64,000 nt of DNA, taken from sequence record KY703222; one strand, given 5' to 3'. The notes under the pieces were generated by a model. The model did not search any database. It was not told the origin of the DNA and was given only the letters and a program-made list of their open reading frames with translations. A program made the position numbers and the translations under genes. This DNA is from Escherichia phage phiC120. Within the stretch, counting starts at the first letter, position 1. Each line of letters opens with the position of its first letter. Positions 7,919-55,500 of this stretch are shown here, in pieces.

Positions 7919-8247
7919 TTTGCCGCCTTAACAATTTTCAGGTCAATGAATTTTTTCTTACGTTGATTTTTCATACGACGGATAGTCTTTTCAGAGATTT
8001 CATGTTTCTGATAAGCTTTAGATTCAACACCAAATGCAGCAACGTCAAATTCAGAAAGAATATATTGTACTAGAATTTCACGAATAGAATTACGTCCAAT
8101 TTTCTGGTCGTGTTTTTGCATGATTTCATAAAGACGGAATTCCCACGCATCAAGAACTTGAGGAGTAACAATATTGCCGGATTCCAGAAGAGCAACAACT
8201 TTATCGAAAGCGAAAGAATTAACTACGTTTTTGATTTTAGTAGACAT
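7915..8247 (-). CDS. Hypothetical protein (start at internal Met with GAGGA SD)
   Basis: ORF 7915..8286; the first ATG sits inside a -10 TATAAT box, so the second Met (MSTKIKN...) is preferred. Confidence 0.45.
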   Translation of the reverse strand: MSTKIKNVVNSFAFDKVVALLESGNIVTPQVLDAWEFRLYEIMQKHDQKIGRNSIREILVQYILSEFDVAAFGVESKAYQKHEISEKTIRRMKNQRKKKFIDLKIVKAAK

Positions 8248-8284
8248 ATTATTTTCCTCGGTTATTTTATTATCCAACGAGAGC

Positions 8285-8313
8285 ATTATACTCTGCTCTC
8301 AAGAGTCTGTACA
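8285..8313 (-). promoter_or_regulatory. Early-type promoter (TGTACA-N17-TATAAT), copy 1 of a duplicated 55-bp cassette
   Basis: Near-identical 55-bp block at 8262..8316 and 38572..38625; palindrome GAGAGCA...GCTCTC flanks the -10. Confidence 0.5.
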
Positions 8314-8554
8314 CTATTTTTTAAGCATGAAAAGCAAGTAATTTGTATCACGTGGAGTAATATCAACACCCATATCAAAGATGCCTTTATAGATTGGGTA
8401 TTTGTTTTCGGTTGTATCGAAGCTGAAACTATTTCCATCACATCTAACAGTAATAGCATCTGTTAAAATGTCATACTCAATCCTAACAATTGAATCCCCA
8501 ATTTTAACGTCGAGGTGTTTTTTTGAATTTGATAAAATCTAATTCTTCGGCCAT
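8314..8554 (-). pseudogene. Small gene interrupted by a frameshift at an A7 run (intact product about 79 aa)
   Basis: ATG 8554 with GAGGA SD; frame stops after 16 codons and the ORF continues in a second frame after the T7/A7 run at 8518..8524; removing one A gives MAEELDFIKFKKHLDVKIGDSIVRIEYD...NYLLFMLKK. Confidence 0.4.
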
Positions 8555-8617
8555 GATATTTTCCTCATTTTAAGACGGCAGGAAGATAATAACATGTCTT
8601 CCTATCGTTGTACATTA

Positions 8618-8830
8618 TTAACCGAACTTTTTAGCGCCTTTCCAGCCTTCGTACATAACTGCACAAGTCAATAGTACAGCATGTTGGCATTCTTTGTATT
8701 TGTAAACCCAGAACCAGCGTAAGAAGTCTTCATCCTCAACGCCGTTGAGTTTCATATTGGCAAAGAATTCTGCACGTTCTTCACGAAGCTTTTGCGATAA
8801 CATAGATTCAGGATTCATTTTATATTCCAT
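8618..8830 (-). CDS. Hypothetical protein
   Basis: 70-aa ORF. Confidence 0.45.
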   Translation of the reverse strand: MEYKMNPESMLSQKLREERAEFFANMKLNGVEDEDFLRWFWVYKYKECQHAVLLTCAVMYEGWKGAKKFG

Positions 8831-23773: not shown

Positions 23774-23803
23774 ACTATAACATAGTCCTACCAAGATGTA
23801 AAC
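23774..23803 (-). promoter_or_regulatory. Early-type promoter GTTTAC-N18-TATAGT inside a 10-bp palindrome
   Basis: GGTAGGACTA-ctataaca-TAGTCCTACC. Confidence 0.5.
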
Positions 23804-24036
23804 TACCGATTGTGTTTTAAATGTTGATAAAGTTCTTCAACTTGTTTAGGGTCCAAAACAATTAAGTCATTTTCTTGTCGAAGATAAATCCATCCCTTAT
23901 CCCCAGGACCATTTTTACAAAACATCGCCACCATATCATCATCTTCAGCGCTTTCAGGTAAAAGTTCAAGTACACCGTCTTCAGATTTTCCAGTATAATC
24001 GTAAAGCATAATATCCTCACATAATCTCGTTAACAT
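23803..24036 (-). CDS. Hypothetical protein
   Basis: 77-aa ORF. Confidence 0.45.
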   Translation of the reverse strand: MLTRLCEDIMLYDYTGKSEDGVLELLPESAEDDDMVAMFCKNGPGDKGWIYLRQENDLIVLDPKQVEELYQHLKHNR

Positions 24037-24196
24037 ACATTTGCAATTCAGTGTGCGTATCAGCCATCTTTTTCATTGCCTTATTGATATCGATATCACC
24101 GTCTTCACACCCATGGGCATTTTCCCAATCGGATACAGCGTTAGCGTACTCTTCAATCAAAAACATTAACTTAGAAATTTTTTCTTTACGTGACAT
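24017..24196 (-). CDS. Hypothetical protein (start at internal Met)
   Basis: ORF 24017..24235; MSRKEKISKL start with GAGGAG SD. Confidence 0.45.
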   Translation of the reverse strand: MSRKEKISKLMFLIEEYANAVSDWENAHGCEDGDIDINKAMKKMADTHTELQMYVNEIM

Positions 24197-24223
24197 AACG
24201 TTCTCCTCTAGTAAGTAAGGTCT

Positions 24224-24252
24224 ACTATAACACAACCTGAGGAGAAGTAAAC
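24224..24252 (-). promoter_or_regulatory. Early-type promoter (GTTTAC-N17-TATAGT) with anti-SD arm
   Basis: 8-bp inverted repeat TTCTCCTC (24201..24208) / GAGGAGAA (24239..24246) links the spacer to the SD of the 24196 gene. Confidence 0.55.
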
Positions 24253-24262
24253 TGATAGATGC

Positions 24263-24291
24263 AAAAAAGCCCCAACCTTTCGGAAGGGGCT
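24263..24291 (-). terminator. Intrinsic terminator after rI
   Basis: Minus strand AGCCCCUUCCGAAAGGUUGGGGCU followed by UUUUUU. Confidence 0.7.
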
Positions 24292-24297
24292 AGTAAA

Positions 24298-24599
24298 TTA
24301 GATAGATGTAGGCTCTAATTTTATTTTCATGAACTCAGCAAATTTTCTGGCAGTTTTTATGCCTTGTTCATGACATTCAAATGCATCATCACAGGGGCTA
24401 TTTTTGTAATGCTTTGCCATATACTTATAAAATTTTTCAGAATTCTCAACATTTTGAATTTCGAACAAAGTATATACGTTTTTAATCCCTGATTCCATAA
24501 AGTTATCAAAGTACGGGTCAACATATGCAGTGCCAACAATAGGAGTTGTTGCTGCAAAAACCCCAGCATCGCCATGACAGCTATCGCTCTTAAGGCCAT
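24298..24599 (-). pseudogene. rI: Lysis-inhibition regulator rI, interrupted by a frameshift
   Basis: ATG 24599 with AGGAGG SD encodes MALRAIAVMAMLG (signal anchor as in T4 rI), then the frame is lost at GGGGTTTTT (24552..24564); the rI-like remainder ...DPYFDNFMESGIKNVYTLFE... is in another frame (ORF 24298..24498). Confidence 0.6.
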
Positions 24600-24611
24600 A
24601 TAGGCCTCCTG

Positions 24612-24824
24612 TTAATTTTGGCCAGTATTTATTTTTCGCCTTTGAACGGCCTTAACATCTGCGAGGTATTTTTCCAGCTTGCGCTTGCGTGTATAATCAG
24701 CTTTAGAACCAGTTTGACGAATATCCTCGTTTAAATGAGAAATAGAATGTCCTAATTCTCTTCGGATTTCGTCCAATTGGGTTACAGTAAGATTACGAAG
24801 TTGTCTTTCGTTTAATTGCTGCAT
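24612..24824 (-). CDS. Hypothetical protein (rI.1 position)
   Basis: 70-aa ORF between rI and tk. Confidence 0.45.
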
Positions 24825-24851
24825 ATATACCTCTTGGTTAGATATTAGTAT

Positions 24852-25433
24852 TTATAACAACCCTGTCAAATCATTCCAATGCTTCCGGCATAATGACACG
24901 TATCTATCGGTATCACCAATTTCAATTTGACTGCCATCTGTAATTGGAAGTCCGTCTTCCGTGACTCTAGCTACCATTGTGGCCTTTTTACCGCAATGAC
25001 AGACACCTTTAAGTTCAACAAGCTTATCGGCAATAGCCATTAATGCTTGAGAACCTTCAAATAGATTACCTTTAAAATCTGTTCGTAGTCCGTATGCCAT
25101 TACCGGCACATTGTATACGTCAACAATACGACTAAGTTGATACACCTTTTCAGTAGTTAAGAACTGAGCTTCGTCAACAAATACACAGTGAATATCCTTT
25201 TGTGCTGCAGCCCATTTATAAAATTCAAAGATATCCATGTCTTTTGTAATTATATTGGCATCCTGACGAATACCAATACGAGAGACTATTTCACCTTTTG
25301 AATCGCGAGTATCAATAGCCGGTTTAAGAACTAATACACCCATGCCACGTTCTTTATAGTTATGTGCGGCAGTAAGTAATGAAGCAGACTTACCAGCGTT
25401 CATAGCGGCATAGGTAAAAATTAAACTAGCCAT
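24852..25433 (-). CDS. tk: Thymidine kinase
   Basis: 193 aa; P-loop YAAMNAGKSASLL; zinc ribbon CHCGKKA...CRKH. Confidence 0.93.
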   Translation of the reverse strand: MASLIFTYAAMNAGKSASLLTAAHNYKERGMGVLVLKPAIDTRDSKGEIVSRIGIRQDANIITKDMDIFEFYKWAAAQKDIHCVFVDEAQFLTTEKVYQLSRIVDVYNVPVMAYGLRTDFKGNLFEGSQALMAIADKLVELKGVCHCGKKATMVARVTEDGLPITDGSQIEIGDTDRYVSLCRKHWNDLTGLL

Positions 25434-25442
25434 AAGAGTCCC

Positions 25443-25625
25443 TTATAGTGAATTCACGTAGTCAATGAGTTCTTGTTCTTTCCTGTCAAATGATTCCATC
25501 AATGCTTGATATTCTTCGTCTGTTAAAGGAGCATATTCATCGTACGCATTGGTGGCTGCTTGCTCATCCAATAGGTCATGGATAAGTTCGAACAGTTTAG
25601 TTTTCTCTTCTTTAGTCAATTTCAT
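25443..25625 (-). CDS. Hypothetical acidic protein (tk.1 position)
   Basis: 60-aa ORF. Confidence 0.4.
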   Translation of the reverse strand: MKLTKEEKTKLFELIHDLLDEQAATNAYDEYAPLTDEEYQALMESFDRKEQELIDYVNSL

Positions 25626-25849
25626 TTAGGTTCACCTTCTTTAACGAAATCTGGGTAAGGGTAAAATCCTGAGTAAAACCCTTCACCTTTATGATTGCTA
25701 CAACCTTTGTTCGAACAGTAACACCAATAATCAAAATCACAAGCCATTTCGTCATTGCATAAAGCAAAAACTACAGGCCATTCGCATTTTTCGCATTTAG
25801 CACCTGTAAGAATTTTTGTTTGGCTCATAACCATTTGACCTGCATGCAA
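25622..25849 (-). CDS. Cysteine-rich small protein
   Basis: 75 aa with several Cys pairs (CEKCEW...CYCSNKGC). Confidence 0.45.
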   Translation of the reverse strand: MHAGQMVMSQTKILTGAKCEKCEWPVVFALCNDEMACDFDYWCYCSNKGCSNHKGEGFYSGFYPYPDFVKEGEPK

Positions 25850-26052
25850 TATTCTTCGACATGCTTTTTACGACCTTTCTTATCAATAAAGGTATATTCC
25901 ATAAAGCGTCCATGATAACGACGTTCAACATCGTGAGGGGTGTTAATAGGACACTTAGTCTGACGAATTTCTTCCCATTCACGAATAATAACTGCTTTAT
26001 TCTTTGGGTCATACGGGTGAGGATAATGCACATTCATAACAATGGTTCCCAA
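25825..26052 (-). CDS. Hypothetical protein
   Basis: 75-aa ORF. Confidence 0.4.
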   Translation of the reverse strand: MGTIVMNVHYPHPYDPKNKAVIIREWEEIRQTKCPINTPHDVERRYHGRFMEYTFIDKKGRKKHVEEYCMQVKWL

Positions 26053-26501
26053 TCAACAATCACAATTTCTAGTTTAGTGGAATATGTATCAAGAATTTCT
26101 TCAATGATATCCCAGTTTCCACCACCTATACCTGCTCCAATTCTTGGCATGTAAATCACAGGCTTTGTTATCTTATTTTTTCCGAATTCATTTAATTCTA
26201 TTATACAATTCATTAAAGCAGAGTACTCAAAATTAGGTCCCGGCTCAAACTGAGTATAAAGATTAAAGCAATAAGCTTTATGAGTCTTAAAATATTTTTC
26301 ATAAACCGAATAAGTCCCAAGTTTAGACTCGTCTCCGAATTCAGTTTGAAGTTTATCGGCTTCCAGAATTTTTGGATAAGCCTTTGCCAATTGACCTGCT
26401 ACACCGGCGCCCATTGTATGAAAACAATTGCACCCATGAGCAATATTATTACCTTTAGAAAACAGGGCGACAATATCGCCCTTGATATAGTTTTTAATCA
26501 C
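26034..26501 (-). CDS. Macro-domain protein, TARG1/DarG-like
   Basis: 155 aa; GDIVALFSKGNNIAHGCNCFHTMGAGVAGQL and PRIGAGIGGGNWDIIEEIL resemble the two glycine-rich ADP-ribose-binding loops of TARG1-type macro domains. Confidence 0.55.
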   Translation of the reverse strand: MIKNYIKGDIVALFSKGNNIAHGCNCFHTMGAGVAGQLAKAYPKILEADKLQTEFGDESKLGTYSVYEKYFKTHKAYCFNLYTQFEPGPNFEYSALMNCIIELNEFGKNKITKPVIYMPRIGAGIGGGNWDIIEEILDTYSTKLEIVIVDWEPLL

Positions 26502-26841
26502 TTGCTACAAGTCCTCTAGTATAAGAGTCAACTAGACGGTCCACCATAGAATTGCATGCTGCCTTATCTTTAGGTTCCGCCACCGAGCATTCTAATATTT
26601 GCCATTTTTTATGATATCGTTTAATTAAGGTAGACGCCTTGAACCTACTAGACGCCCCATCTTTTTCTCCGTCTTTATACGCATATAACAATTTTTGTGA
26701 AAAATCTACTTTACACTCTTGACTTTTACCACAGTAATCAGACGCCGTTCTGTTTGTATACTCCGTTACATCAGTATATGTAGTATTAGCAAGAGCGTTA
26801 AATGAAACCAAGCTAACTATTAAAGCCAACATTTTGGTCAT
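26494..26841 (-). CDS. Secreted protein (position of T4 vs, 115 aa)
   Basis: N-terminal signal peptide MTKMLALIVSLVSFNALA; 115 aa. Confidence 0.45.
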   Translation of the reverse strand: MTKMLALIVSLVSFNALANTTYTDVTEYTNRTASDYCGKSQECKVDFSQKLLYAYKDGEKDGASSRFKASTLIKRYHKKWQILECSVAEPKDKAACNSMVDRLVDSYTRGLVASD

Positions 26842-27380
26842 TCTTTTATTTCCAGTAGTTTATTTGATTTAAGGTAATTAGCCTTTTCTAGGACTTCAGA
26901 AGCATATTTACTTCCAGCACTTGTCTTCCATCCCGCATTATATGAGGATATAGCTTTTCTTATATCCCCGTTATGTATATTTAACCAATAAGAAAATTCG
27001 ATATAAGCCCATCTGGCTGAATTAGACCGCTTAGATAGCATTTTCTTAATTTGGGCATCAGTCATATTATAACCAAGCTGGTTAATTCTTGCCCTCATTG
27101 TTGGTAGATAGTTTTGGAACATTCCATACGCATGGTGACCTTTCTTATCTTTAAGATTAATACCGGCAGATGATTCTTGCCATAGTATTGCGGCCATTAT
27201 GTATCCAAGTCCTTTCTTATGCATATTTTCATGCGTTTTAAATTTTCCGTCCTTAGAAAATTGTTCCCCAAACTGATAAGCATAATTCAAGTTATCGAGT
27301 TGGACATTACTAAAAGTATGCTCGGAGCTATGTGCTGATAATGAAAGAGCAAATAGACCAGCGAGTAGTGCTTTTCTCAT
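26838..27380 (-). CDS. Secreted lytic-transglycosylase-like protein (vs.1 position)
   Basis: Signal peptide MRKALLAGLFALSLSA; LWQESSAG resembles the SLT catalytic E-S motif. Confidence 0.55.
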   Translation of the reverse strand: MRKALLAGLFALSLSAHSSEHTFSNVQLDNLNYAYQFGEQFSKDGKFKTHENMHKKGLGYIMAAILWQESSAGINLKDKKGHHAYGMFQNYLPTMRARINQLGYNMTDAQIKKMLSKRSNSARWAYIEFSYWLNIHNGDIRKAISSYNAGWKTSAGSKYASEVLEKANYLKSNKLLEIKE

Positions 27381-27388
27381 GTTTACCT

Positions 27389-27847
27389 CTAGATTTTAAT
27401 CACTGCTTTAGAAGCTTTTCCTGGTAGTCGTTTATTGTTAATAATAGCCATTCTACATTGAAGAGTCTTCATTTTGAATGCCGGATTTTCGCGACAAACT
27501 GTAAGGCCTAACCAAAGATTTCCATCAGTTATTTCTAAACGGCCTGGGCGGTATTCGACACCTTCGACAAAATCTTCATCAACATCTGGACGTGCCGGCA
27601 TTGATAAAAATTCTGCAACTTCTTTAACGTGATTTTTTACTTTACGAAATAATTCAAAAACGTAATTCTCATCTATTTCTCTCTGGATGGCACGATCTAA
27701 GAGATGTTGAGAATACTTGATATGAAAGCCTGGTAGTCCAAGAGACTTTGCAGCATCTTTTATACCGGCATTGATTTGACGAAACTCCGTTTCAAAGATT
27801 CGACGGAGTTTATTGCGACGGATAAAAACTTCCGAATTGATAGTCAT
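27389..27847 (-). CDS. regB: Endoribonuclease RegB
   Basis: 152 aa; MTINSEVFIRRNKLRR...YSQHLLDRAIQREIDENYVFELF...LQCRMAIINNKRLPGKASKAVIKI matches T4 RegB. Confidence 0.85.
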   Translation of the reverse strand: MTINSEVFIRRNKLRRIFETEFRQINAGIKDAAKSLGLPGFHIKYSQHLLDRAIQREIDENYVFELFRKVKNHVKEVAEFLSMPARPDVDEDFVEGVEYRPGRLEITDGNLWLGLTVCRENPAFKMKTLQCRMAIINNKRLPGKASKAVIKI

Positions 27848-27875
27848 TTTTATTTCTCCTCTAGTTGACAGGTCT

Positions 27876-27904
27876 ATAGTAACACAACTAGAGGAGAAGT
27901 AAAC
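27876..27904 (-). promoter_or_regulatory. Early-type promoter (GTTTAC -35, TACTAT -10) for regB with anti-SD arm in the spacer
   Basis: Minus strand GTTTAC-N17-TACTAT; 12-bp perfect inverted repeat 27856..27867 / 27885..27896 pairs the spacer with the regB SD GAGGAG. Confidence 0.6.
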
Positions 27905-27908
27905 TACT

Positions 27909-28124
27909 TTATTGATAAAATGGAGTTAAAGTCCAAGATTCTTTAGATACCATATCGGCGAAATGTCTCATCTCTTCGATTTGGCGACGACGCTGGTCAG
28001 CATAATCTTCTTCGCCTTCTTCCTTACAATCTTCAAGGTCTTCTTCAAGATACTTTAAGTATTCACTACAAATTTTGTTGACCTTTTCCTGGAAGTCCAA
28101 TAACCCAGTAATAGTAGAAGCCAT
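27909..28124 (-). CDS. Hypothetical acidic protein (vs.3 position)
   Basis: 71-aa ORF. Confidence 0.45.
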   Translation of the reverse strand: MASTITGLLDFQEKVNKICSEYLKYLEEDLEDCKEEGEEDYADQRRRQIEEMRHFADMVSKESWTLTPFYQ

Positions 28125-28390
28125 TAGTATTTTTCCTCAGGACGAAATACTGCACGACAGGCCCACATGCTGGCTTCTTTTAGATGTTGCTTAGCGTACT
28201 TAAGAGCCTGCACTGCATCCATATCTTCTTTGGTTTGATGCTCTGTTTCATTTTCTTTCAAGATATAGGCTTCTTCAATCAGAGCATCAAACATCAATCC
28301 AAGACGGACTTCTGCATCTTTAATAGCGTTCACTTTACCTATTTTATCGTCGGTATGTGGCTTGTAGCCTTTAATATCTTCAATCGACAT
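28124..28390 (-). CDS. Small protein at the T4 vs.4 (Acb2) position; candidate anti-CBASS cyclic-nucleotide sponge
   Basis: ORF 28124..28558 with start at internal Met 28390 (GAGGA SD; ATG overlaps upstream stop); 88 aa MSIEDIKGYKPHTDDKIGKV...; assignment is positional only. Confidence 0.4.
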   Translation of the reverse strand: MSIEDIKGYKPHTDDKIGKVNAIKDAEVRLGLMFDALIEEAYILKENETEHQTKEDMDAVQALKYAKQHLKEASMWACRAVFRPEEKY

Positions 28391-28604
28391 AAGGAATTTC
28401 CTCATCGGTGGCAAGGTCATATTCGACCAATTGGATAGGCTCATTAATACCATATCCACGTACAATGATATCAGTTGTCGGATAGTTTCCAGTAATATCA
28501 CCCATTCTAAATGCTTCAGTGAATGATTGCTCGCCTGAGCAACTAAACCAGGCGGCAAAACATTTTAAAACATCTTCAGACCCTTCTATAATCAATTTAG
28601 CCAT
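28380..28604 (-). CDS. Hypothetical protein (vs.5 position)
   Basis: 74-aa ORF, stop overlaps the next ATG. Confidence 0.45.
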   Translation of the reverse strand: MAKLIIEGSEDVLKCFAAWFSCSGEQSFTEAFRMGDITGNYPTTDIIVRGYGINEPIQLVEYDLATDEEIPYVD

Positions 28605-28966
28605 TATAGACTCTCAGTAAAGGTACGAGCGATAACGTCGCGCTGCTGTTCCGGAGTCAGAGAGTTAAAGCGAACTGCATAACCGGATACACGGATGGTC
28701 AGCTGCGGATATTTTTCCGGATGCTTAACTGCATCTTCCAGAGTTTCCCGACGCAGAACGTTAACGTTCAGATGTTGACCACCTTCAATTTTAACTTTAG
28801 GTTGATGTTCAATTTCAATTTCACGGGCATTCAAACCGTAGAAAATTTCCGGGTCTACAATAGCGTCTTCTTTAAAAGTCTTAGAGACAATAATCCGGGC
28901 TTGAGTACCGTCTTCAAAATAAATAGTGCCTTTATGTGTACCTTCAAGAATTTGATATGCTTTCAT
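28604..28966 (-). CDS. Hypothetical protein (vs.6 position)
   Basis: 120-aa ORF. Confidence 0.5.
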
Positions 28967-28972
28967 ATAACC

Positions 28973-29281
28973 TCAATTAGAAAATAAATTTATCCAAGTT
29001 TTTTCTTTAATCAAAAATGGGTCGGAATTAAACGCCATTAAACTTTGAGTGATTAATCCCTTAAATGGCCCATCAATAAATTCCATTTTGAAATGCGGAA
29101 TACTAGTCATCAGTCGTGCATTAGGAGCAGTACAAAGAACCTGCTGCCCTGCGAACGGACCTTTAGTCAAACGATATCGTTTAGGTTTAAAATGGTAAAT
29201 CTCGTAATTTTCTACAAGAGCCCTTTTATTGCATACTGGGCTGTTATAACAATACTCAAAAACTTCAATAGTGGTCATCAT
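28973..29281 (-). CDS. Hypothetical protein (vs.7 position)
   Basis: 102-aa ORF. Confidence 0.45.
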   Translation of the reverse strand: MMTTIEVFEYCYNSPVCNKRALVENYEIYHFKPKRYRLTKGPFAGQQVLCTAPNARLMTSIPHFKMEFIDGPFKGLITQSLMAFNSDPFLIKEKTWINLFSN

Positions 29282-29817
29282 TGCATTCCAATCACAAAAA
29301 ATTGAGGACGAGCATTACCGCCGTTGCAATATTTGCTTTTGCAACAGTGTTGGACTGTTTTAATATGTACATTGTAAATCTTATCCATATCAGGAGCTTT
29401 AATAGGCTCGTCAATTATGTATAGAATACGAGAAAGCGTTAATCCACGGAATTTAGAACCTTCATTGCCAATAAAACTACGAACAGAATCAGTAAATAAA
29501 CGGAATCGAATATCGTCGCTAGAATAACGAGAAAATTCTTTTTTAATGTTGCCAGCAGAAATTTTAGAATAAGCTGAAGTATTAGAAAGAACAATAACTG
29601 TTCCGCCATCATACAGCCAATTAACAGCAAAATTAGTTACTGCGGTCGATTTACCTGATTGTCTGCCGCCGTCTAAACGAAGTGTACAGTACTGCTTGAG
29701 TACGTCTTCAAATGGTGGGGCATAACCGTTCTTACAAATTTCTTCTACTCTAGCATCAGAATGGTGTGTAAAAGCATTCATCAGGGATAGATAAGGTCCG
29801 GTTAAAAATGTTCTCAT
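29278..29817 (-). CDS. P-loop NTPase (vs.8 position)
   Basis: 179 aa; Walker A LDGGRQSGKSTAV. Confidence 0.5.
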   Translation of the reverse strand: MRTFLTGPYLSLMNAFTHHSDARVEEICKNGYAPPFEDVLKQYCTLRLDGGRQSGKSTAVTNFAVNWLYDGGTVIVLSNTSAYSKISAGNIKKEFSRYSSDDIRFRLFTDSVRSFIGNEGSKFRGLTLSRILYIIDEPIKAPDMDKIYNVHIKTVQHCCKSKYCNGGNARPQFFVIGMQ

Positions 29818-29991
29818 TTAGTTTCTCTTTTAGGTTGGGGCCATTCCATGGCACATGTTAGGTCCTTCGACTCGCTATGTAAACCCATTACCGCACTTGG
29901 GCTCGACCTTATTACAGGTTGGAAAAGGTACATCACTCAGAGGACTCGACGTTCATGAGGAGAGGTTGCGTTTCCCTTTATTAGGCAAGAA

Positions 29992-30321
29992 TTATACTCT
30001 AGGCTTTTGAGCTTGTTTGGTATTGGATTCCCATGCGGCTTTGGTAATTTTGTTAGCGGCATAACCAAAGGCATTAGATAGAACACCTTTAGAGTTGAAT
30101 ACATCCAATCCAATAAGTACACCAGCTGCGTTAAATTTAGGAGCAAAGTATGCATTAGTTTTAGAAAGAGCTTTTTTCAATTCAGGGTCTTGAACCAAGC
30201 CATCAAAAACGCCTTTACCATTTACTTTATATGTTACTTTGGGATTTTTACCTTCTTCGATAGCAGCTTTCTGTTCCGCAGATAATGTAACTTCAGTGAT
30301 AAATTCTTGATACGTTTTCAT
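29992..30321 (-). CDS. Internal protein with capsid targeting sequence (IP-like)
   Basis: N-terminus MKTYQEFITE equals the T4 internal-protein capsid targeting sequence; Ala/Lys-rich 109 aa. Confidence 0.7.
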   Translation of the reverse strand: MKTYQEFITEVTLSAEQKAAIEEGKNPKVTYKVNGKGVFDGLVQDPELKKALSKTNAYFAPKFNAAGVLIGLDVFNSKGVLSNAFGYAANKITKAAWESNTKQAQKPRV

Positions 30322-30350
30322 ATGTTTCCTTTAAATGTAAATAGGCCTTA

Positions 30351-30929
30351 TTAATTACCACGGGCCGCATTAGCGACGGCGTAAGCGTACTGAACATTAG
30401 CGTCTTTAAACGTACCTTTAGAGGTATCTATTTCTGCCTTAAAGCCACCTTTAGCCATAACATCGGCAAATTCTTTACGGAAAGTCATTGCATCAAGACC
30501 TTTCCATGATGATTTATGCTTGGCAAATTCAAGACCAGCGTAGTTGACAGCTTTAGCCAATTTATTATCAATGACCCATTTACCTGCTTTAGGCACAAAC
30601 TTCGGGCCTTTTTGTTTAGAGAACAGTTTTAAATTCCAGCGACGAAGGTCACTGTCGGCTTTAACAAAAGCTGCGTCTAAGTTACTAGCAACAACATCTT
30701 CAATATGAGCAAATTTAAGTCCGTCAACTTCAATATTTAGATCGTTACGCCAGCGTAGTCCTTCCCAAGCGAAGGCTTTAAAATCAGAAGCTTTTGTGGC
30801 TAGATATCGTTCAAGTGGAGCAGTTTTAGGGTCAAAACCATTTCCGCCACGATAATTCCACTCGTCCTTATTAATGCCTTGAGCTTTTCCTGCAAAGGCC
30901 TCGGCGATAAATTCTTTATATGTTTTCAT
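30351..30929 (-). CDS. Internal protein with capsid targeting sequence (IP-like)
   Basis: N-terminus MKTYKEFIAE; 192 aa. Confidence 0.7.
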   Translation of the reverse strand: MKTYKEFIAEAFAGKAQGINKDEWNYRGGNGFDPKTAPLERYLATKASDFKAFAWEGLRWRNDLNIEVDGLKFAHIEDVVASNLDAAFVKADSDLRRWNLKLFSKQKGPKFVPKAGKWVIDNKLAKAVNYAGLEFAKHKSSWKGLDAMTFRKEFADVMAKGGFKAEIDTSKGTFKDANVQYAYAVANAARGN

Positions 30930-30959
30930 TTTTGTTTCCTTGTTTGTTTTGATAGAGTA

Positions 30960-30989
30960 ATTATACCATATTAATACTTAAGCGTAAAC
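30960..30989 (-). promoter_or_regulatory. Early-type promoter GTTTAC-N18-TATAAT
   Basis: Upstream of the IP-like gene 30351..30929. Confidence 0.5.
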
Positions 30990-30992
30990 AAT

Positions 30993-31253
30993 TTAAGCTT
31001 TACCGCCAGAAATAATTCCGAAGTTGTTAAAATCGTATCCAATATCATCAGCATCTACTTTAGGACTTGCTACAACATAAGCAATTTCACTACGTTTTGC
31101 ATAGGTGTTGATTTCTTTACCATCGCCACCTAAGAAAGAATACCCATTACGTTTTAATGAGCCAAAGTCTTCCGCATCACCAATGAAAGCTTTAACTTTA
31201 AATTTGGGGTCTTTGGCATCCGCTTCAGTGATAAATTCTTGATACATTTTCAT
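30993..31253 (-). CDS. Internal protein with capsid targeting sequence (IP-like)
   Basis: N-terminus MKMYQEFITE; 86 aa. Confidence 0.65.
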   Translation of the reverse strand: MKMYQEFITEADAKDPKFKVKAFIGDAEDFGSLKRNGYSFLGGDGKEINTYAKRSEIAYVVASPKVDADDIGYDFNNFGIISGGKA

Positions 31254-31259
31254 TTTTCC

Positions 31260-31673
31260 TTAGTAAATTGATTTACCATAGTATTTGTACCAAGTGGGAC
31301 GTTGAGCAATTTTTTCATCTAAGCGTGCTTGACTTATCGCAATGGACGCTTCGGACGGGACATAATTATTACGAAATTCTACAGGAATGTCGGAAATATC
31401 CTGGACTGTCGTGTCCTTGATTTTGAAACCACGTTTCAAACATTCAGCTATTAGCTCGATTTGACGTAAACGTAAAAATTCGAGTTTGTCGTAAAAGAAT
31501 GTTACGTGGCCCGTGCCTAAAATAAATGTTGGAGAGATTTTAAAATCTTTTACACGTTTACCATTTTGAACATGTTTACGGACTGCACCGAATACACGAG
31601 GTAATTCACGATACTCAGCCATAAGATGTTGGTCGGTCAGTTCAGAAACAAGTGTTAAATTGATACGAGTCAT
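31260..31673 (-). CDS. denV: Endonuclease V (pyrimidine-dimer DNA glycosylase) DenV
   Basis: [34 protein letters not shown]...[10 protein letters not shown] matches T4 endo V; start at internal Met of ORF 31260..31685. Confidence 0.92.
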
Positions 31674-31700
31674 AATTTCCTCCAAGTAGTTGATAGATGT

Positions 31701-31730
31701 ATAGTATCAAAACCCTTGGAGGAAGTAAAC
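31701..31730 (-). promoter_or_regulatory. Early-type promoter for denV with anti-SD arm in the spacer
   Basis: GTTTAC -35 at 31725..31730; 10-bp perfect inverted repeat 31677..31686 / 31715..31724 pairs the spacer with the denV SD GGAGG. Confidence 0.6.
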
Positions 31731-31731
31731 A

Positions 31732-32013
31732 CTATTTTTCTGAAGCGCCTGAAATATATTTTTCAAGACGTTGTTTCATTAACGAGCCGTTCTTAGCGAT
31801 TTCTTCCGGTTTATCGCACATACGCAGCAGTGCTTCAAGCTTAACGATATCACTGGTGCGCTCAAATTTGCGAGTATCTATCTTACTGGCAAGTTCAGAA
31901 ATACGTGCTAATAGACTTTCAGCTTCAACTAAAGCTGCACCTAGCTTAGTTGCAAATGTGTCAGTAGCTTCGTTAAGAATAGATTCTGATAAAAATTCAC
32001 TATATGTTTTCAT
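31732..32013 (-). CDS. Internal protein with capsid targeting sequence (ipII/ipIII position)
   Basis: Start at internal Met gives [10 protein letters not shown]; sits between denV and e as T4 ipII/ipIII do. Confidence 0.65.
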
Positions 32014-32498
32014 ATATACGCTTTCCAAGTTCCTGTTTTAAATGTTGAGATTACGCGTTTCGCGCGATTAGGTGTCTGACGATACCATTTAGATTGGGCT
32101 AGATTTACTGCCGCTTCATCCCAACGTTTCTGTTGAAGCATACGAAGAGAATTAGTAAAACCAGCAACGCCTGCTACACCCATTTGAAAGACCATATTGA
32201 CCAATGCACATCGACGAACCGCATCTAAAGAATCATATACCGGTTTAAGTTTAGCATTACCCAAGATTCCGCGAACGGCTTTATCGACGTCTTCATTAAA
32301 TAGCTTTTCAGCCTCATCAAGGGTAATTGTACCGTTGCATTTACGACCGATCATTCTGTCAAGTTCAGCTTTAGCTACGGCTAAAGACGGGTTCTTTGTT
32401 ACTAAATGGCCTATGCCAATCGTCCAAAAGCCTTCGGTGTCTTTGTATAAAGTCAGTCTAAGACCTTCGTCATTACGAAGCATTTCAAATATATTCAT
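32010..32498 (-). CDS. e: Lysozyme (endolysin)
   Basis: 162 aa [32 protein letters not shown]...[18 protein letters not shown], near-identical to T4 lysozyme including the catalytic Glu/Asp/Thr context. Confidence 0.97.
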
Positions 32499-32500
32499 AA

Positions 32501-32524
32501 TACCTCCTACGTTTATAGGAGGTA
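32501..32524 (-). promoter_or_regulatory. RBS-sequestering hairpin upstream of lysozyme gene e
   Basis: Perfect 9-bp inverted repeat TACCTCCTA / TAGGAGGTA; the SD AGGAGG is in the 3' arm 4 nt from the ATG; loop contains a late-promoter-like TATAAACG. Confidence 0.7.
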
Positions 32525-32532
32525 TTTATTAC

Positions 32533-32991
32533 TTATAGGATGGTAGTGAGCACCTTATATAATGATTTGCCCATTACATATTCCCATTGAGAAGGTTTAA
32601 TTAAAGCGAATGCATCAAATTCAGGAATCTGTCGTCCGTCTGGGAATGTATGATAGGAATTACAAACACTGTTTCTGAATTGCTCGTGCTCTACAGGGAT
32701 GGTATATTGGAATAGATGAATATTCTTATTGTCTGAGTAATGATGTTCGCCTAGGTCTTTCAGGAAGGCAGGGTCATATTGTGTAAACCCAGTTTCTTCT
32801 TCGCATTCACGAATAGCGGCTTCAATAGGAGATTCACCTGGCTCGACACGGCCTTTAGGAATATCCCACCGATGAGCTAATGCACCTTTAGGACGAGAAC
32901 CAGTTACACGGCCCATGAATAACTCTTTATCTTTTGTCATGAAGATAATACCGGCTGATAGTTCTTTCACTTTATTTTTCTTACTCATCAT
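32533..32991 (-). CDS. nudE: Nudix hydrolase NudE (e.1)
   Basis: Nudix box GRVEPGESPIEAAIRECEEETG. Confidence 0.88.
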   Translation of the reverse strand: MMSKKNKVKELSAGIIFMTKDKELFMGRVTGSRPKGALAHRWDIPKGRVEPGESPIEAAIRECEEETGFTQYDPAFLKDLGEHHYSDNKNIHLFQYTIPVEHEQFRNSVCNSYHTFPDGRQIPEFDAFALIKPSQWEYVMGKSLYKVLTTIL

Positions 32992-33232
32992 CTCGGTCCC
33001 ATGATTTGGCCATTAATTCGGACATAAATTCTTCAATGCGCGTTTCTTTAGATGGACTTTCACTATTAGAAACCGCAAGTTTGTAATCTGCAATAGGACA
33101 GAACATATCAAGGTCCATATTAAGATCGTCTTTGATTTTTTCTTCTGACACATCTTTATCATATGTGTACAGATAACTATCACATGATTCTGATTTAATG
33201 TAAATTGCTATACTCATCTCAAATTCCTGCAT
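32981..33232 (-). CDS. Hypothetical acidic protein
   Basis: 83-aa ORF. Confidence 0.45.
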   Translation of the reverse strand: MQEFEMSIAIYIKSESCDSYLYTYDKDVSEEKIKDDLNMDLDMFCPIADYKLAVSNSESPSKETRIEEFMSELMAKSWDRDDE

Positions 33233-33705
33233 TCGGTAATAAAACGTTCAACTTCATTATTCTTGGCCTTTATCTTGTCTTTACGTTCCTGTAAACTACT
33301 TTTAACAAGATTAATAATGATGCCTATAGTACCTCCACCAATAATACCACCAATAATACTTACGATAGTAGATGCTAATAATATAGCGATAATATCTGGT
33401 ATGGCAAAGGCACTTACTTTAGTACTAAAAAACCATACCGACGGTACAAATATAATCCATCCTGTTATCCATTGGCACTTATTGAAAAACTTTTCAAGCT
33501 CAGCTTGAGTTGTTCGTATTACTTCATCGATAGGTTGATATCCATTAATGTATCTGTTCACGATAATACCTGCTGGCTGGTCGATTTTAAATTCTTGACA
33601 AATACGTTTCACTAAGTAGGATGGACATCCTGTCCAATCTACTGAATAGTACGAAATACCTTCATTACCGTCGTCTATATTAGACCAATATGTTTTGTTA
33701 ATCAT
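33214..33705 (-). CDS. Membrane protein
   Basis: 163 aa; hydrophobic segments WITGWIIFVPSVWFF and IIAILLASTIVSIIGGIIGGGTIGIIINLV. Confidence 0.5.
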   Translation of the reverse strand: MINKTYWSNIDDGNEGISYYSVDWTGCPSYLVKRICQEFKIDQPAGIIVNRYINGYQPIDEVIRTTQAELEKFFNKCQWITGWIIFVPSVWFFSTKVSAFAIPDIIAILLASTIVSIIGGIIGGGTIGIIINLVKSSLQERKDKIKAKNNEVERFITECRNLR

Positions 33706-34391
33706 TACCAGCCTTCCATAGGGAATTCCAGATAAACTTGAGCATTGACACGAATTTCATTAGTAATCTTTTTAACTCGGTCTGTATTACGAGATACACG
33801 TCCGAACCAACGCCATCCATTACTAATTGCACGAGAACCAGTGTGCCATGTTTGCCAATCAAACTGAAGAAGAGTACGGTCCGGAGCTTCCCATTTCTCT
33901 AGTTCACCTTTTTCAATTTTTTCGAGGACTTCTTTGTGCCACTGGCGATAGATAAGTTCGCCATCAGGAATCTGACTGAACTCTGCAGTTCCTGTTGCAA
34001 AATGAGTAGGACACACATCAGCGTTAACAAGACCAAGAATATGTTCAGAATGGTAACGAGGGTTATCATAGTCAGGTTGTCCTGCAGTAATAAAGTGTTG
34101 GCCGACTGGAATATCAGGGCGAGGAACATCATCATGGTGATATCCAGGAATAGCAGGATACCAACCAGGCATCAGCATGTGGACTCGTGAATCAAATACT
34201 ACATCCGAGCCTTTCCAATCGTCAGGGAGATTTTGGATAAAGCTACGAGTAATTGGACCACCGTTATCCCAAGCAAAACTCAAATCACAGTTAAAGAACA
34301 TTGGTTCATTTTTGATTTGGTCATTTTGTACGTTATGAGCAAAACCACCTACTGCACGAGCTTGACTATTAAACACTTTAGAACTATTCAT
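33705..34391 (-). CDS. Hypothetical protein (His/Asp-rich)
   Basis: 228-aa ORF; GYHHDDV and HSEH clusters of unclear significance. Confidence 0.5.
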   Translation of the reverse strand: MNSSKVFNSQARAVGGFAHNVQNDQIKNEPMFFNCDLSFAWDNGGPITRSFIQNLPDDWKGSDVVFDSRVHMLMPGWYPAIPGYHHDDVPRPDIPVGQHFITAGQPDYDNPRYHSEHILGLVNADVCPTHFATGTAEFSQIPDGELIYRQWHKEVLEKIEKGELEKWEAPDRTLLQFDWQTWHTGSRAISNGWRWFGRVSRNTDRVKKITNEIRVNAQVYLEFPMEGW

Positions 34392-34392
34392 A

Positions 34393-34698
34393 TTATTTTC
34401 CTCGGCATTCTTTAATGAAATTTTCTAGATTGGTAGATTCAATAGCTTTTTTACGAGCTTCTGCATGTTCTTCTTCAGACAATTTACATTTATAATTAAC
34501 CCAGACGTTATGGTCAAAACTAGTCGTGGCATATAATAACAAAGCCCCGACGAATAATAAAAATGGTGATAAGAATACAAAACCAGGAACACCATCCATA
34601 TCGTAAGCCTTTTGTAATACTGCAACAGAAAGAGCTGCGTAAAAAGGTGATGCAAATATTGTAAAAAGACCAATTCGGTTGGTTTCGCCTAATTTCAT
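34393..34698 (-). CDS. Membrane protein
   Basis: 101 aa with two hydrophobic helices. Confidence 0.5.
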   Translation of the reverse strand: MKLGETNRIGLFTIFASPFYAALSVAVLQKAYDMDGVPGFVFLSPFLLFVGALLLYATTSFDHNVWVNYKCKLSEEEHAEARKKAIESTNLENFIKECRGK

Positions 34699-34726
34699 AA
34701 TATTCTCCTCATGTTTTAATAGGACT

Positions 34727-34756
34727 ACTATAACATAGTCCTATAATTGTGTAAAC
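34727..34756 (-). promoter_or_regulatory. Early-type promoter GTTTAC-N18-TATAGT inside palindrome ATAGGACTA / TAGTCCTAT
   Basis: Upstream of gene 34393..34698. Confidence 0.5.
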
Positions 34757-38549: not shown

Positions 38550-38591
38550 ATTATTACCTTTCAATTGGTGGTTTTATTATCCAACGAGAGC

Positions 38592-38620
38592 ATTATACTC
38601 TGCTCTCAAGAGTTTGTAAA
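38592..38620 (-). promoter_or_regulatory. Early-type promoter, copy 2 of the duplicated cassette
   Basis: Same sequence as at 8285..8313, upstream of the 37956..38549 gene. Confidence 0.5.
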
Positions 38621-50229: not shown

Positions 50230-50523
50230 ATGTCTGGATTAAGTTACGACCAGTGCGTTACAACAGGTCATGAAGCATGGCCTCCTACAGTAATTAATGC
50301 TTCTCAATCTAAAGTATTCACCGGCGGTATTCCTGTTCTTGTAGCAGGAGACCAAATAACACCTCATACAGAAATTAAAAAACCGTACGAGACTCATGGT
50401 GGTGTTACTGAACCTCGTACATCTAAAGTATATGTCACCGGTAAAAAGGCCGTTCAAATGGCTGACCCAATTTCATGCGGGGACACTGTTTCTCAGGCCT
50501 CGTCAAAAGTCTTTATAAAATAG
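50230..50523 (+). CDS. 5.4: PAAR-repeat spike tip protein gp5.4
   Basis: ORF 50176..50523; start at internal Met gives 97 aa as in T4 gp5.4. Confidence 0.65.
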
Positions 50524-50531
50524 GAATTAAA

Positions 50532-52502
50532 ATGGCAAACACTCCTGTAAATTATCAGTTAGTCAGAACGGCGAATGCTATTCCCGAAATTTTTATCGGG
50601 GGCACATTTGCCGAAATTAAAACAAATATAATCGAATGGCTCAATGGACAGAACGAATTTCTTGATTATGATTTTGAAGGTTCGCGTTTAAACGTATTGT
50701 GTGACCTTTTAGCATATAATACTCTTTATATCCAACAGTTCAGTAATAGTGCAGTGTATGAAAGCTTTATGCGTACTGCTAACTTGCGCAGTTCCGTTGT
50801 ACAAGCGGCTCAGGATAATGGATATCTGCCTGCATCTAAATCGGCAGCACAAACAGAAATTATGCTCACATGTACGGATGCATTAAATAGAAACTATATC
50901 ACTATTCCGCGTGGTACTCGTTTCCTGGCGTATGCTAAAGGTACTTCTGTTAACCCGTATAACTTTGTTTCCACCGAAGACGTCATTGTAGTTAAAGACA
51001 AAAATAATCAATATTTCCCACGTCTTAGGTTAGCTCAGGGACGTATTGTTCGTACTGAATTAACATTTGATAAATTAAAACCTATCATTATTCGTGATAA
51101 GAACATTGACCGTAATTTGGTTAAATTGTATGTTGACGGAGCAGAATGGATTAACTGGACTCGCAAATCGATGGTTCATGCTGGTTCTACTTCAACCATT
51201 TATTATATGCGAGAAACTGTTGACGGGAACACTGAATTTTATTTTGGTGAAGGTGAAATCTCTATTAACACATCAGAAGGTGCTTTAACATCTAACTACA
51301 TTGGCGGCCTTAAACCTGTCCAGGGTTCTAAAATCGTAATTGAATATATTTCTACTAATGGTGCTGAAGCAAATGGTGCAGTAGGATTCTCTTATGCTGA
51401 TACATTAGCTAATATCACAGTTATTGGAATTAATGAAAACCCAAGTAATAACCCTGACTTCGTTGGTGCTGATGGCGGTGGCGACCCTGAAGATATTGAA
51501 CGTATCCGTGAATTAGGTACAATTAAACGCGAAACTCAACAACGATGTGTGACTGCGACCGATTACGACACATTCGTCTCTGAACGATTTGGTTCTATTA
51601 TTCAAGCGGTTCAGACATTTACGGATTCATCTAAGCCTGGGTACGCATTTATTGCTGCTAAACCTAAGTCTGGGCTATATTTGACTTCCGTCCAACGAGA
51701 CGATATTAAAAATTATCTTAATGAGTATAACTTAGGGACGATAACTCCTGTTGTTATTTCTCCTGATTATTTGTTTATTAAAATGAATATTCGCGTTACG
51801 TATGCATTGAACAAATTACAGGAATCTGAACAATGGTTAGAAGGCCAAATTATTAATAAAATCGACCGGTATTATATTGAAGACGTGGAAATTTTTAACT
51901 CGTCATTCGCAAAATCTAAAATGCTAACGTATGTAGATGACGCAGATATTTCTATCATTGGTTCGTCTGCGACTATTCAAATGGTTCGCGAGGTACAGAA
52001 CTTCTACAAAACACCTGAAACAGGTATTAAATACAATAACCAGATTAAAGATAGAACATTAGAATCTAACGTGTTTTCATTTGATAGTTTACGCGTTGAC
52101 CCTGAAACGGAAGCTACTATTAAATACGACGTTCGCATTGTAGGTTCAGATAGAAATGACCGTGGCATTGGACAAGTTATTATTGGCCCGTTTGCAGATG
52201 GCGACGTTATAGAAAATGCTTATATTCAACCATATACTGGTGACGATTTTAATAAACTTCATGTTACGGACGGAAGAAACAAATATTACTCTATAGGTGA
52301 AGTAAATTATCCGGCTGATTCAATTTATTGGAATATAGCTAAAATTGATTTAACTTCTGATAGGTTTGAAGTTCAAACTATTGAACTCTATTCAGACCCA
52401 GCTGATGATGTTATCTTTACTAAAGACGGGTCATTAATTGTATTTGAAAATGACTTACGTCCGCAATATTTAACCATAGATTTGGAGCCTATTTCACAAT
52501 GA
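50532..52502 (+). CDS. 6: Baseplate wedge protein gp6
   Basis: ORF 50475..52502; MANTPVNYQLVRT start gives 656 aa. Confidence 0.85.
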   Translation: MANTPVNYQLVRTANAIPEIFIGGTFAEIKTNIIEWLNGQNEFLDYDFEGSRLNVLCDLLAYNTLYIQQFSNSAVYESFMRTANLRSSVVQAAQDNGYLPASKSAAQTEIMLTCTDALNRNYITIPRGTRFLAYAKGTSVNPYNFVSTEDVIVVKDKNNQYFPRLRLAQGRIVRTELTFDKLKPIIIRDKNIDRNLVKLYVDGAEWINWTRKSMVHAGSTSTIYYMRETVDGNTEFYFGEGEISINTSEGALTSNYIGGLKPVQGSKIVIEYISTNGAEANGAVGFSYADTLANITVIGINENPSNNPDFVGADGGGDPEDIERIRELGTIKRETQQRCVTATDYDTFVSERFGSIIQAVQTFTDSSKPGYAFIAAKPKSGLYLTSVQRDDIKNYLNEYNLGTITPVVISPDYLFIKMNIRVTYALNKLQESEQWLEGQIINKIDRYYIEDVEIFNSSFAKSKMLTYVDDADISIIGSSATIQMVREVQNFYKTPETGIKYNNQIKDRTLESNVFSFDSLRVDPETEATIKYDVRIVGSDRNDRGIGQVIIGPFADGDVIENAYIQPYTGDDFNKLHVTDGRNKYYSIGEVNYPADSIYWNIAKIDLTSDRFEVQTIELYSDPADDVIFTKDGSLIVFENDLRPQYLTIDLEPISQ

Positions 52503-55500
52503 CAGTAAAAGCGCCAGCAGTCACGAGTCTCAGATTATCTAAATTGTCCGCAAACCAAGTTCAAATTCGCTGGGATGAGGTTGGCGCTAATTTCTACTAT
52601 TTTGTGGAAATAGCTGAGACCAAAACAGCTAACGGGGAAGCAATTCCCCGTAATAGCTATAGATGGACTAATTTAGGATATACCGCTGATAACAATTTCT
52701 TTGAGTCTGGTTTAAATTCATTAACAACATATATGATGCGTGTGGCTACAGCAGCGGAGGGATTTGAGCAGTCTGATTGGAGATACACTGAAGAGTTTGA
52801 AACATTTGAAATAAACGCTTACACATTCCAACATATGATTGAAATGCAATTAGCTAACGAGTTTATTTCTGAAAAATTTACAAAAAATAATACAAACTAC
52901 GTTGATTTTAATAATGACACGATCATGGCAGCACTGATGAGCGAGTCGTTCCAATTCAGTCCTGCATACACCGATGTGTCATCGATTAGAAATTTTATAA
53001 TTGGTGAAAATCAGTATCATGAAATCCAGGGGCATATCCAGGATGTATGTAAAGATATAAATCGAGTATATCTAATGGAATCTGAAGGAATTCTTTACCT
53101 TTTTGAAAGATTCCAACCTATTGTAAAAGTGTCTAATGATAAAGGCCAAACATGGAAAGCGGTTAAATTGCTTAATGACCGTGTAGGATATCCACTTTCA
53201 CGAACCGTATATTACCAATCAGAATATACGACGTATTTGCTCGGCTATGATAAGATTTTTTACGGGCGTAAATCATCCGATATTCGTTGGTCTGCTGATG
53301 ATGTTCGTTTCAGTTCACAAGACGTAACATTTGCTAAAATCGGGGATAAATTAAATTTAGGTTTTGATGTAGAGATTTTCGGTACATACGCGTCATTACC
53401 AGGAAACGTATCACGTATTGCAGAAGCTATTACTTGTAATGATGACTATGTTTATATTGCGGCCAGAGATAAAGTTCGCTTCGTTAAAACCAGTAACGCT
53501 CCTATTGATTCAGATCCATTATCTCCGACCTATTCCGAACGGTTGTTTGAACCTGAGACGTTTACAATAACAGGCAACCCTAAAGCAGTTTGTTATAAAA
53601 TGGATTCTGTTGGTGGAAGAATATTCGCTCTTATTATTGGTGAAGTTGAAAACGTTAATGACGACCCAAGAACAAAGCCTATTTTGGATTCCGTTGATAA
53701 AGGTGTATACGTTTTAGACCATGACGCTGGAACATTTAAAAGGATATTTGGTAATACCGAAGAAGAACGCCGTCGTATAGAACCGGCTTTCACCAATATG
53801 TCTACTGATGGTGTTGAGCTTTATATCTCTTCTAGTAATTTTAAATTTTTAGAATCTGATATTGTTGACGACCCAGAAACGCAATCTAAGTACGGACTTT
53901 TGGGAGCAGTTAAGTATGAATATCCTAGAGAATGGCTCGCAGATAAACATTACCATATGATGATTTTCGCATCAAACGAAGAAAGTAATTGGGAAACTTT
54001 TTCACCAACTCCTATGCAGTATTATGCAGAACCTTTCTTTAGTTATTCTAGAAAATCAGGCACACGTTCTTGGATTAATAACTCTGATAGAGCGGTAGTG
54101 ATTTATTCTGATTTGCTTTACACAAAGGTAGTGGAAAGCTACCCTAGCACTTCACCTGATCGTAAAGTTCACGAATACTGGAATGACGGCGATTGTAAGA
54201 TTGTTATGCCGAATATAGAATTCACTGGATTTAAAAAATACGCATCTGGTATGTTGTTTTATAAATCATCAGGTGAAATAATTTCATATTACGATTTTAG
54301 TTATCGTGTTAGAGATAACGTTTCTATAATTTGGAAGCCCACTAACGTATTTTTGACCGCCTCATTACAAAACCAAGAAAAAGAAACTTCTTGGGTTCCT
54401 GTTGAAGAGACAGGTCTAGCTGACCCGGATTTACGCCCATTACTCACTACAATGATGCCAGAGTCTTATCTGTTGGATAATACAAACTTTGAAGCATTTT
54501 GTGAAGCGTATATTCAATATCTTTCTGATGGATACGGGACTCATTATAATAACTTATTGAATTTGATTAAAAATAAATACCCACGAGAAGAACACGCATG
54601 GGAATATCTTTGGTCTGAAATTTATAAACGGAACATTTATTTGAATGCTGAGAAACGTGATTTAGTTTCTAGGTTCTTTGAGTCCAGAAGTTATGATTTT
54701 TATTCTACTAAAGGAACTGAAGCATCGTATAAGTTTTTGTTTAAAGTTCTTTATAACGAAGACGTTGAAGTGGAAATCGAGTCATCTGCTGGAACAGAGT
54801 ATGATATCATAATTCAATCTGATTCTATAAGTGAAGATTTGGTTGGACAAACTATATACACCGCTACAGGTAGATGTAATGTTACATATTTAGAAAGAAG
54901 CTATTCTAAAGGTAAATTACAATGGACTGTGACTATTCATAACCTTTTAGGTAGGCTTTTAGTCGGACAAGAAGTAAAAGCCGAAAGACTAGCAGATTTT
55001 GAAGGTGAAATAGTTCGCGGTATTAAAGGTAAAGAACTTGCCCAAAACACTATCGATTATTTTAATCGTGGTAGAGCTTATTACGTCATGAAAATAAAGT
55101 CAAATCTTCCATCCTCTCGTTGGAAATCTGACGTACTACGTTTTGTACATCCGGTAGGATTTGGATTTATTGCAATAACCTTATTAACAATGTTTATTAA
55201 TACAGGATTAACGCTTAAACATGTTGAAACTATTATTAATAAATATAAAAATTATAAGTGGGATTCCGGACTGCCTACGGAATATGCAGACCGCGTCGCT
55301 CGTTTAGACCCTCAAGGTAATGTAGAATTCAATCCTGTTACAGGTGAAGTAATTTATGATGCTGGTCCTTATGCCGGTATCGAATACCCTTTACCTGCAA
55401 ATTATAATGAAGAAAATGATAACTCTATTTTCCAAGGACAATTACCGTCCGAACGACGCAAGCCGATGAGCCCATTATTTGATGCATCAGGTACAACGTT

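Follow-up and report, generated by a model that had tools for sequence, protein, structure and literature searches.

Does the rI locus of Escherichia phage phiC120 encode an antiholin and, if not, is its reading frame broken in the phage, only in the deposited sequence, or in a way that a slipping ribosome or polymerase might mend? A sequence-only reading of a 64,000-nucleotide stretch of the source record KY703222 (hereafter the window) had proposed that rI is split by a frameshift at a homopolymer run. Reading both frames and aligning the locus to relatives bore this out, and below we consider in turn what the locus encodes, how widely its allele is found, what loss of the gene would mean, and how far the record itself may be trusted.

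The rI locus and its lesion

The whole, disrupted rI (antiholin) locus lies on the minus strand at 24298..24599, its start ATG at 24599-24597, and was recognized by alignment and by matches of the restored protein to PF24205, PHROG 1246 and PDB 6PSK/6PSH. The AGGAGG ribosome binding site announced by the sequence-only reading is indeed present (24605..24610, minus strand), separated from the ATG by a 5-nt spacer as read directly from the sequence, and sequence comparison found it identical in Av-05, RB69, phiE142 and JK36. From this start, frame 0 reads MALRAIAVMAMLG, then FLQQQLLLLALHML..., and reaches a stop at 24357; the resulting 80-aa ORF (24357..24599, minus strand) comprises 14 genuine RI residues and 66 out-of-frame residues. 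The rest of rI, residues 16-100 of intact RI, lies in the -1 frame (24298..24555, minus strand) and spans the periplasmic holin-binding domain. This frame reads ...VFAATTPIVGTAYVDPYFDNFMESGIKNVYTLFE...KFYKYMAKHYKNSPCDDAFECHEQGIKTARKFAEFMKIKLEPTSI, ends in ...VFAATTPIVGTAYVDPYFDNFMESGIKNVYTLFEIQNVENSEKFYKYMAKHYKNSPCDDAFECHEQGIKTARKFAEFMKIKLEPTSI and has its stop at 24298, so that an unrelated tail in frame 0 and an rI remainder in another frame, as had been described, can both be read. The remaining third frame contains many stops across the locus. The sole start codon of the -1 frame, ATG 24498, opens a 66-aa ORF (24298..24498) with neither a signal sequence nor a Shine-Dalgarno motif.

On the coding strand the switch point is GGGGTTTTT, where the rI frame is left after 14 codons. 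The homopolymer site is G4T5 (24556..24564, minus strand), which on the plus strand is A5 (24556-24560) followed by C4 (24561-24564); the run previously placed, with no strand given, at 24552..24564 was correctly located, its limits being drawn slightly too wide. Alignment with Av-05 and RB69 shows that relatives carry GGGGTTTTTT (Gly-Phe-Phe) at this run, and it contains a single gap, which sets GGGG-TTTTTT in these two phages against GGGG-TTTTT in the window. By this comparison the missing base is a T, since the relatives have T6 and phiC120 has T5, and it is a T whose insertion restores one continuous rI, as had been anticipated for an unnamed base; with it the gene measures 303 nt (100 codons plus stop). 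The run corresponds to codons 13-15, Gly-Phe-Phe, within the N-terminal hydrophobic signal-anchor segment of RI. The T6 of the relatives encodes Phe14-Phe15 (TTT TTT), and the reading frame of phiC120 rI is broken at codon 15.

Addition of one T gives MALRAIAVMAMLGFFAATTPIVGTAYVDPYFDNF..., a 100-aa protein that matched the Pfam family Antiholin (PF24205, "T4-like virus antiholin family", cut-off 27 bits) with 83.7 bits (E=8.4e-24; residues 1-98 on profile positions 1-94 of 96) and PHROG 1246 "lysis inhibition" with E=1.2e-30. The C-terminal 66-aa ORF alone still matched Pfam Antiholin (E=7.9e-17, profile positions 35-94 only); with two such E-values, for the fragment and for the restored protein, the rI identity is not a matter of chance. 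The 80-aa frameshift product as encoded found no match in Pfam or PHROG. Residues 27-96 of RI align to the soluble domain of T4 RI (PDB 6PSK_R and 6PSH_A, E ~6e-23), and both cysteines are kept relative to T4 RI (PCDDAFEC aligned with PCSSDFEC). In tblastn of phage records the restored protein was 96-100% identical to RB69-type rI and ~54% identical to rI of T2 and T6. The original comparison with T4 rI named the right gene, but the nearest type is RB69 rI, from whose product the restored protein has two differences among the first 24 residues.

The surroundings of the gene agree with this assignment. The window has the order tk (24852-25433), rI.1, rI, mobD.2a, and its ORF order matches the annotation of RB69, Av-05, JK36 and T2 (tk, rI.1, rI, mobD.2a / rI.-1). 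The upstream neighbour rI.1, identified from the ORF list and synteny, is intact (70 aa; 24612..24824, minus strand), and a sequence scan gave a sigma-70-like promoter match upstream of it (24869-24842, minus strand). Just past the rI stop a hairpin, GCCCCTTCC-GAAA-GGTTGGGGC followed by T6 (24263..24290, minus strand), was read by eye and is a putative terminator-like element; a simple scan missed it because its stem holds an internal 2x2 mismatch. Judged by sequence and by position alike, the gene is rI. phiC120 is an RB69-clade Mosigvirus whose locus is rI by descent, but intact RI is not encoded.

This has consequences for annotation: KY703222 and its RefSeq copy are without rI, and the 80-aa frameshift product is labelled "hypothetical protein" (KNT62_gp217; ARM70924.1 / YP_010090203.1). 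In the phiC120 paper the lysis genes named are an endolysin and a holin alone, and rI goes unmentioned (PMC8022965). As a separate matter of annotation, the original RB69 record (AY303349) takes the internal Met11 as the rI start (273 nt, 90 aa), while other Mosigvirus records including Av-05, phiE142 and JK36 place it at the ATG behind AGGAGG (303 nt, 100 aa); the disagreement is one of annotation and not of sequence.

Distribution of the T5 allele and the case for recoding

A 61-nt probe centred on the run matched 153 phage records in INPHARED without a single exact match; the best matches reached 98.4%, equivalent to one gap, and among those listed each spans 62 nt. The T5 allele thus occurs in 0 of 153 phage records. 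Likewise, a 26-mer carrying T5 was found neither in IMG/VR nor in 185,579 species-representative GTDB genomes nor in JGI metagenomes, and the T6 version of the same 26-mer was found in IMG/VR. T6 was seen in Av-05, RB69, phiE142, JK36 and one IMG/VR contig, and the rI locus had no match in E. coli genomes. At the protein level, the 80-aa frameshift product stands alone in its 90% identity cluster in a collection of 15 billion proteins; the cluster of the intact protein in the same collection has 99 members, on hundreds of contigs. A tblastn search with the restored protein returned 666 phage records, all with at least 80% of the query in one place, and 40 of 40 sampled rows begin at residue 1 and form an unbroken piece. 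As a coverage of at least 80% cannot by itself rule out frameshifts so near the N-terminus, the uniqueness of the allele rests on the probe and the cluster. Collectively, its absence from 153 Mosigvirus records, the singleton cluster and the near-identical T6 copy in Av-05 suggest that the T5 allele is recent and derived.

These data bear directly on whether the split gene could nevertheless be expressed. Programmed -1 slippage, of the ribosome or during transcription, might still give full-length RI from the T5 allele; alternatively, the T6 tract might be an evolved contingency locus that turns the antiholin ON and OFF reversibly, with phiC120 in the OFF state. We give these two possibilities together next to no credence. 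Judging from the sequence, slipping back one base at UUU-UUG could in principle regain the rI frame, and the ancestral tract, with its six repeated bases within an ORF, belongs to a length class reported to be hypermutable and reversible in T2, T4 and T6. Against this, all 153 relatives are in frame, as is consistent with the single-piece homologues found by tblastn. The 0-frame codons are CUG GGG UUU UUG, in which a G precedes UUU and GGG is not followed by GGZ, so that an in-phase X XXY YYZ heptamer is absent. The next 93 nt reach an MFE of -15.1 kcal/mol, and as shuffled versions average -13.97 (z = -0.38), the native sequence folds no better than these do. Programmed -1 frameshifting was rejected on these three counts, namely no in-phase heptamer, no downstream structure and a two-frame layout in 0 of 153 relatives, and with it the slippage that the sequence-only reading had listed among its alternatives. 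Transcriptional slippage was discarded as well, given that the relatives are in frame. For transcriptional slippage to be efficient, a run longer than U5 is needed. We also discarded a conserved overlapping ORF behind the 66-codon open tail: the off-frame ORF is not conserved, being open only inside the nearly identical RB69 clade and interrupted by stops in ESCO47 and T2.

As for a contingency locus, a repeat of at least six bases does lie within the ORF (T6 in RB69, phiE142, JK36, Av-05 and the IMG/VR contig). We found neither a tract kept beyond what codon usage explains nor recurring ON and OFF alleles: the tract is missing from ESCO47 (TTGTTT) and T2, an AT-rich genome favours TTT TTT for two phenylalanines in any case, and more than 150 records have yielded one OFF allele. 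The lack of TTT TTT in ESCO47 and T2 and the single known OFF allele thus speak against an evolved hypermutable tract. In its fullest form this proposal would make T6 at codons 14-15 of RB69-clade rI a working contingency locus, with T5 and T7 as OFF states that arise and return ON at high frequency through polymerase slippage, a mix of early and late lysers in every lysate, phiC120 as a takeover by the OFF form, and the A6 to A7 change at 8518-8524 (see below) as a second switch. We regard this as very unlikely.

Predicted consequences of a null allele

The explanation towards which we lean, with somewhat better than even confidence, is that loss of one T from T6 created a real rI null allele that became the majority in the propagated phiC120 stock. 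The phage DNA polymerase may have slipped on the six-base run and produced a -1 deletion. Such events have precedents, as runs of at least six bases in T2, T4 and T6 show raised +/-1 frameshifts (Gomez, Barrick and Waters, bioRxiv 10.1101/2025.10.21.683753).

T4 RI is described as a signal-anchor-release protein whose periplasmic domain binds that of holin T and thereby delays lysis. With the N-terminus in one frame and the remainder in the -1 frame, the deposited phiC120 sequence cannot encode an RI in which signal-anchor segment and periplasmic domain are continuous. A ribosome starting at the usual ATG would make 14 RI residues and 66 unrelated ones, leaving the holin-binding periplasmic domain detached from its signal anchor. 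That domain could be made only from the internal ATG, as a cytoplasmic 66-aa fragment without a ribosome binding site of its own; lacking both a Shine-Dalgarno motif and an export signal, the fragment is probably inactive. Because domain and anchor are split, no functional antiholin should be encoded, and the allele is predicted to be null.

A null allele might then have risen in the stock, since rI loss shortens the latent period, enlarges plaques and would be favoured in serial laboratory propagation of RB69-type phages. Of the short-latent-period mutants that arose in serially transferred RB69, six were sequenced and all six had mutations in rI (Abedon 2019, PMC6832632). The phenotype to be expected of phiC120 would be earlier lysis, a shorter latent period and loss of the RI-dependent delay on superinfection. 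The classical r phenotype is not assured, because RB69, the type phage of the clade, is reported to have no lysis inhibition, and loss of rI was there linked to a shortened latent period (Abedon 2019, PMC6832632). If the mutation is real, a phage proposed for biocontrol is without its antiholin, which would affect latent period, burst size and plaque size, and phiC120 would provide a further example of rI loss in the propagation of RB69-type phages.

Three known systems resemble this case. The rI null mutants of T4 (r-type, rapid-lysis, e.g. r48) affect the same gene family in the same order tk - rI.1 - rI, and the phiC120 lesion, which parts the holin-binding domain from its signal anchor, should likewise be null; it differs in that phiC120 RI is only ~54% identical to RI of T2 and T6 and stands in an RB69-like background. 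The second system is the set of short-latent-period mutants from serial transfer of RB69 (Abedon, Hyman and Thomas 2003, cited through PMC6832632), which belong to the same clade and are also mutated in rI; phiC120, in contrast, was not deliberately evolved. Finally, the homopolymer hot spots of T-even phages (T2 agt and T4 rIIA; bioRxiv 10.1101/2025.10.21.683753) also concern +/-1 changes in A/T runs of at least six bases within an accessory gene, attributed to polymerase slippage; unlike these, the phiC120 rI tract is not conserved beyond the RB69 clade and has one OFF allele in more than 150 records. The lesion is of a familiar kind, a homopolymer frameshift that knocks out an r gene, and either way it involves no new mechanism.

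A second frameshift and the quality of the record

An intact (T6) rI in the phage, with one base dropped from the homopolymer at de novo assembly or consensus calling, is the main competing account; we put it at rather less than an even chance. The window, which is collinear with phiE142 (98.2%), RB69 and JK36, was aligned to these three phages by blastn, gaps were clustered, and only clusters with a net length not divisible by three were kept. All three relatives covered 1-49 kb of the window and phiE142 alone covered 47.6-63.9 kb. An earlier tblastn scan with the ORFs of relatives had missed rI, its 14-aa N-terminal piece being too short. Only two frame-disrupting indels proved unique to the window, the rI run and a site at 8518-8524; between 47.6 and 63.9 kb, the comparison with phiE142 gave none. 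Both lie in small accessory genes, and essential genes are spared.

The site at 8518-8524 reads T7 in the window (A7 in the coding sense of the minus-strand gene) where phiE142, RB69 and JK36 have T6; the ATG of the affected gene is at 8554. The change cuts the homologue of RB69ORF075c / JK36_00070 to 16 aa, MAEELDFIKFKKTPRR, followed by a stop, and removal of one A yields a 79-aa protein ~97% identical to RB69ORF075c / JK36_00070. The A7 allele was found in 0 of 96 phage records and not in IMG/VR.

How the record was made bears on both changes. phiC120 was sequenced from a Nextera library by Illumina HiSeq (100-bp paired-end, 54,583,412 reads) and assembled de novo in Geneious R10 at >100x (PMC8022965). 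The Av-05 paper gives the identical read count, 54,583,412, with another instrument and read length (PMC4463512 vs PMC8022965). The equal counts mean that the two assemblies may share data or material, and the T6 call of Av-05 and the T5 call of phiC120 may thus come from overlapping data. The Av-05 record (KM190144, same laboratory, classed in Vequintavirinae) is a chimera of an rV5-like backbone, represented by its first 50 kb, and a T4-like insert. This insert (103,144-114,107) matches window positions 23783-34745 over 10,964 nt with one mismatch (32002 A/G) and one gap, the latter being the rI run with T6 in Av-05; it does not reach the 8518 site. In the phiE142 record (KU255730), which measures 121 kb, baseplate wedge genes are annotated twice (phiE142_179/180 and _188/189), and window positions 50456-53089 align to it at two places (record region 94,000-113,000), which suggests that this assembly holds a duplication or collapse. 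The phiC120 record itself has 186.6 kb (186,570 bp) against ~168-170 kb in relatives.

Several of these observations favour an artefact. Both window-unique changes fall in A/T runs of six, one losing a base (T6 to T5) and the other gaining one (A6 to A7), each breaks an ORF conserved in all compared relatives, and the second of them is what an error-prone consensus would give; the window has 62 runs of at least six bases. The unreliable assemblies from the same laboratory (the Av-05 chimera, phiE142 and the size of phiC120), like the equal read counts reported for different platforms, also count against a real mutation. The opposite homopolymer changes, the T6 of the near-identical copy and the poor assemblies together point to an artefact or at least to a mixed population.

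On the other side, only 2 of ~63 long runs are affected, the scan gave no further single-base indel unique to the window, and one of the two changes falls in rI, a known knockout target under laboratory passage. Consensus errors in six-base homopolymers are uncommon with Illumina at >100x. A real mutation in the phiC120 stock, the explanation that we prefer, is supported by the sequencing platform together with the precedent of the six rI-mutant RB69 isolates, and by the finding that there are only two window-unique frameshifts, both in accessory genes. Were the change an artefact, the record would hold at least two homopolymer errors, alongside chimeric related records of the same laboratory. 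The practical value of the analysis lies in a corrected annotation and in a warning that the phiC120 record, of doubtful quality, carries at least two homopolymer frameshifts.

Two further observations were made in and around the 8-kb region. Relative to window positions 8100-8640, genes 55.2 and 55.3 in the 2003 record of RB69 show several scattered indels of one base, e.g. at window positions 8109, 8128, 8138, 8601 and 8628, some of which also set RB69 apart from phiE142 and JK36, and the alignment of the RB69 55.3 protein is spread over three frames of the window; these indels may be errors of an old record or local divergence. In addition, 40 nt (TTATTATCCAACGAGAGCATTATACTCTGCTCTCAAGAGT as read on the plus strand) occur twice without a change, at 8267-8306 and 38574-38613, where chance would predict no such repeat. 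The first copy spans the beginning of a minus-strand gene (ATG 8286), and at the place of the second, relatives have the gap between e.6 and frd.3. On the minus strand the inverted repeat GAGAGCA/TGCTCTC brackets a TATAAT, and the element may be an early promoter or regulatory sequence present in two copies.
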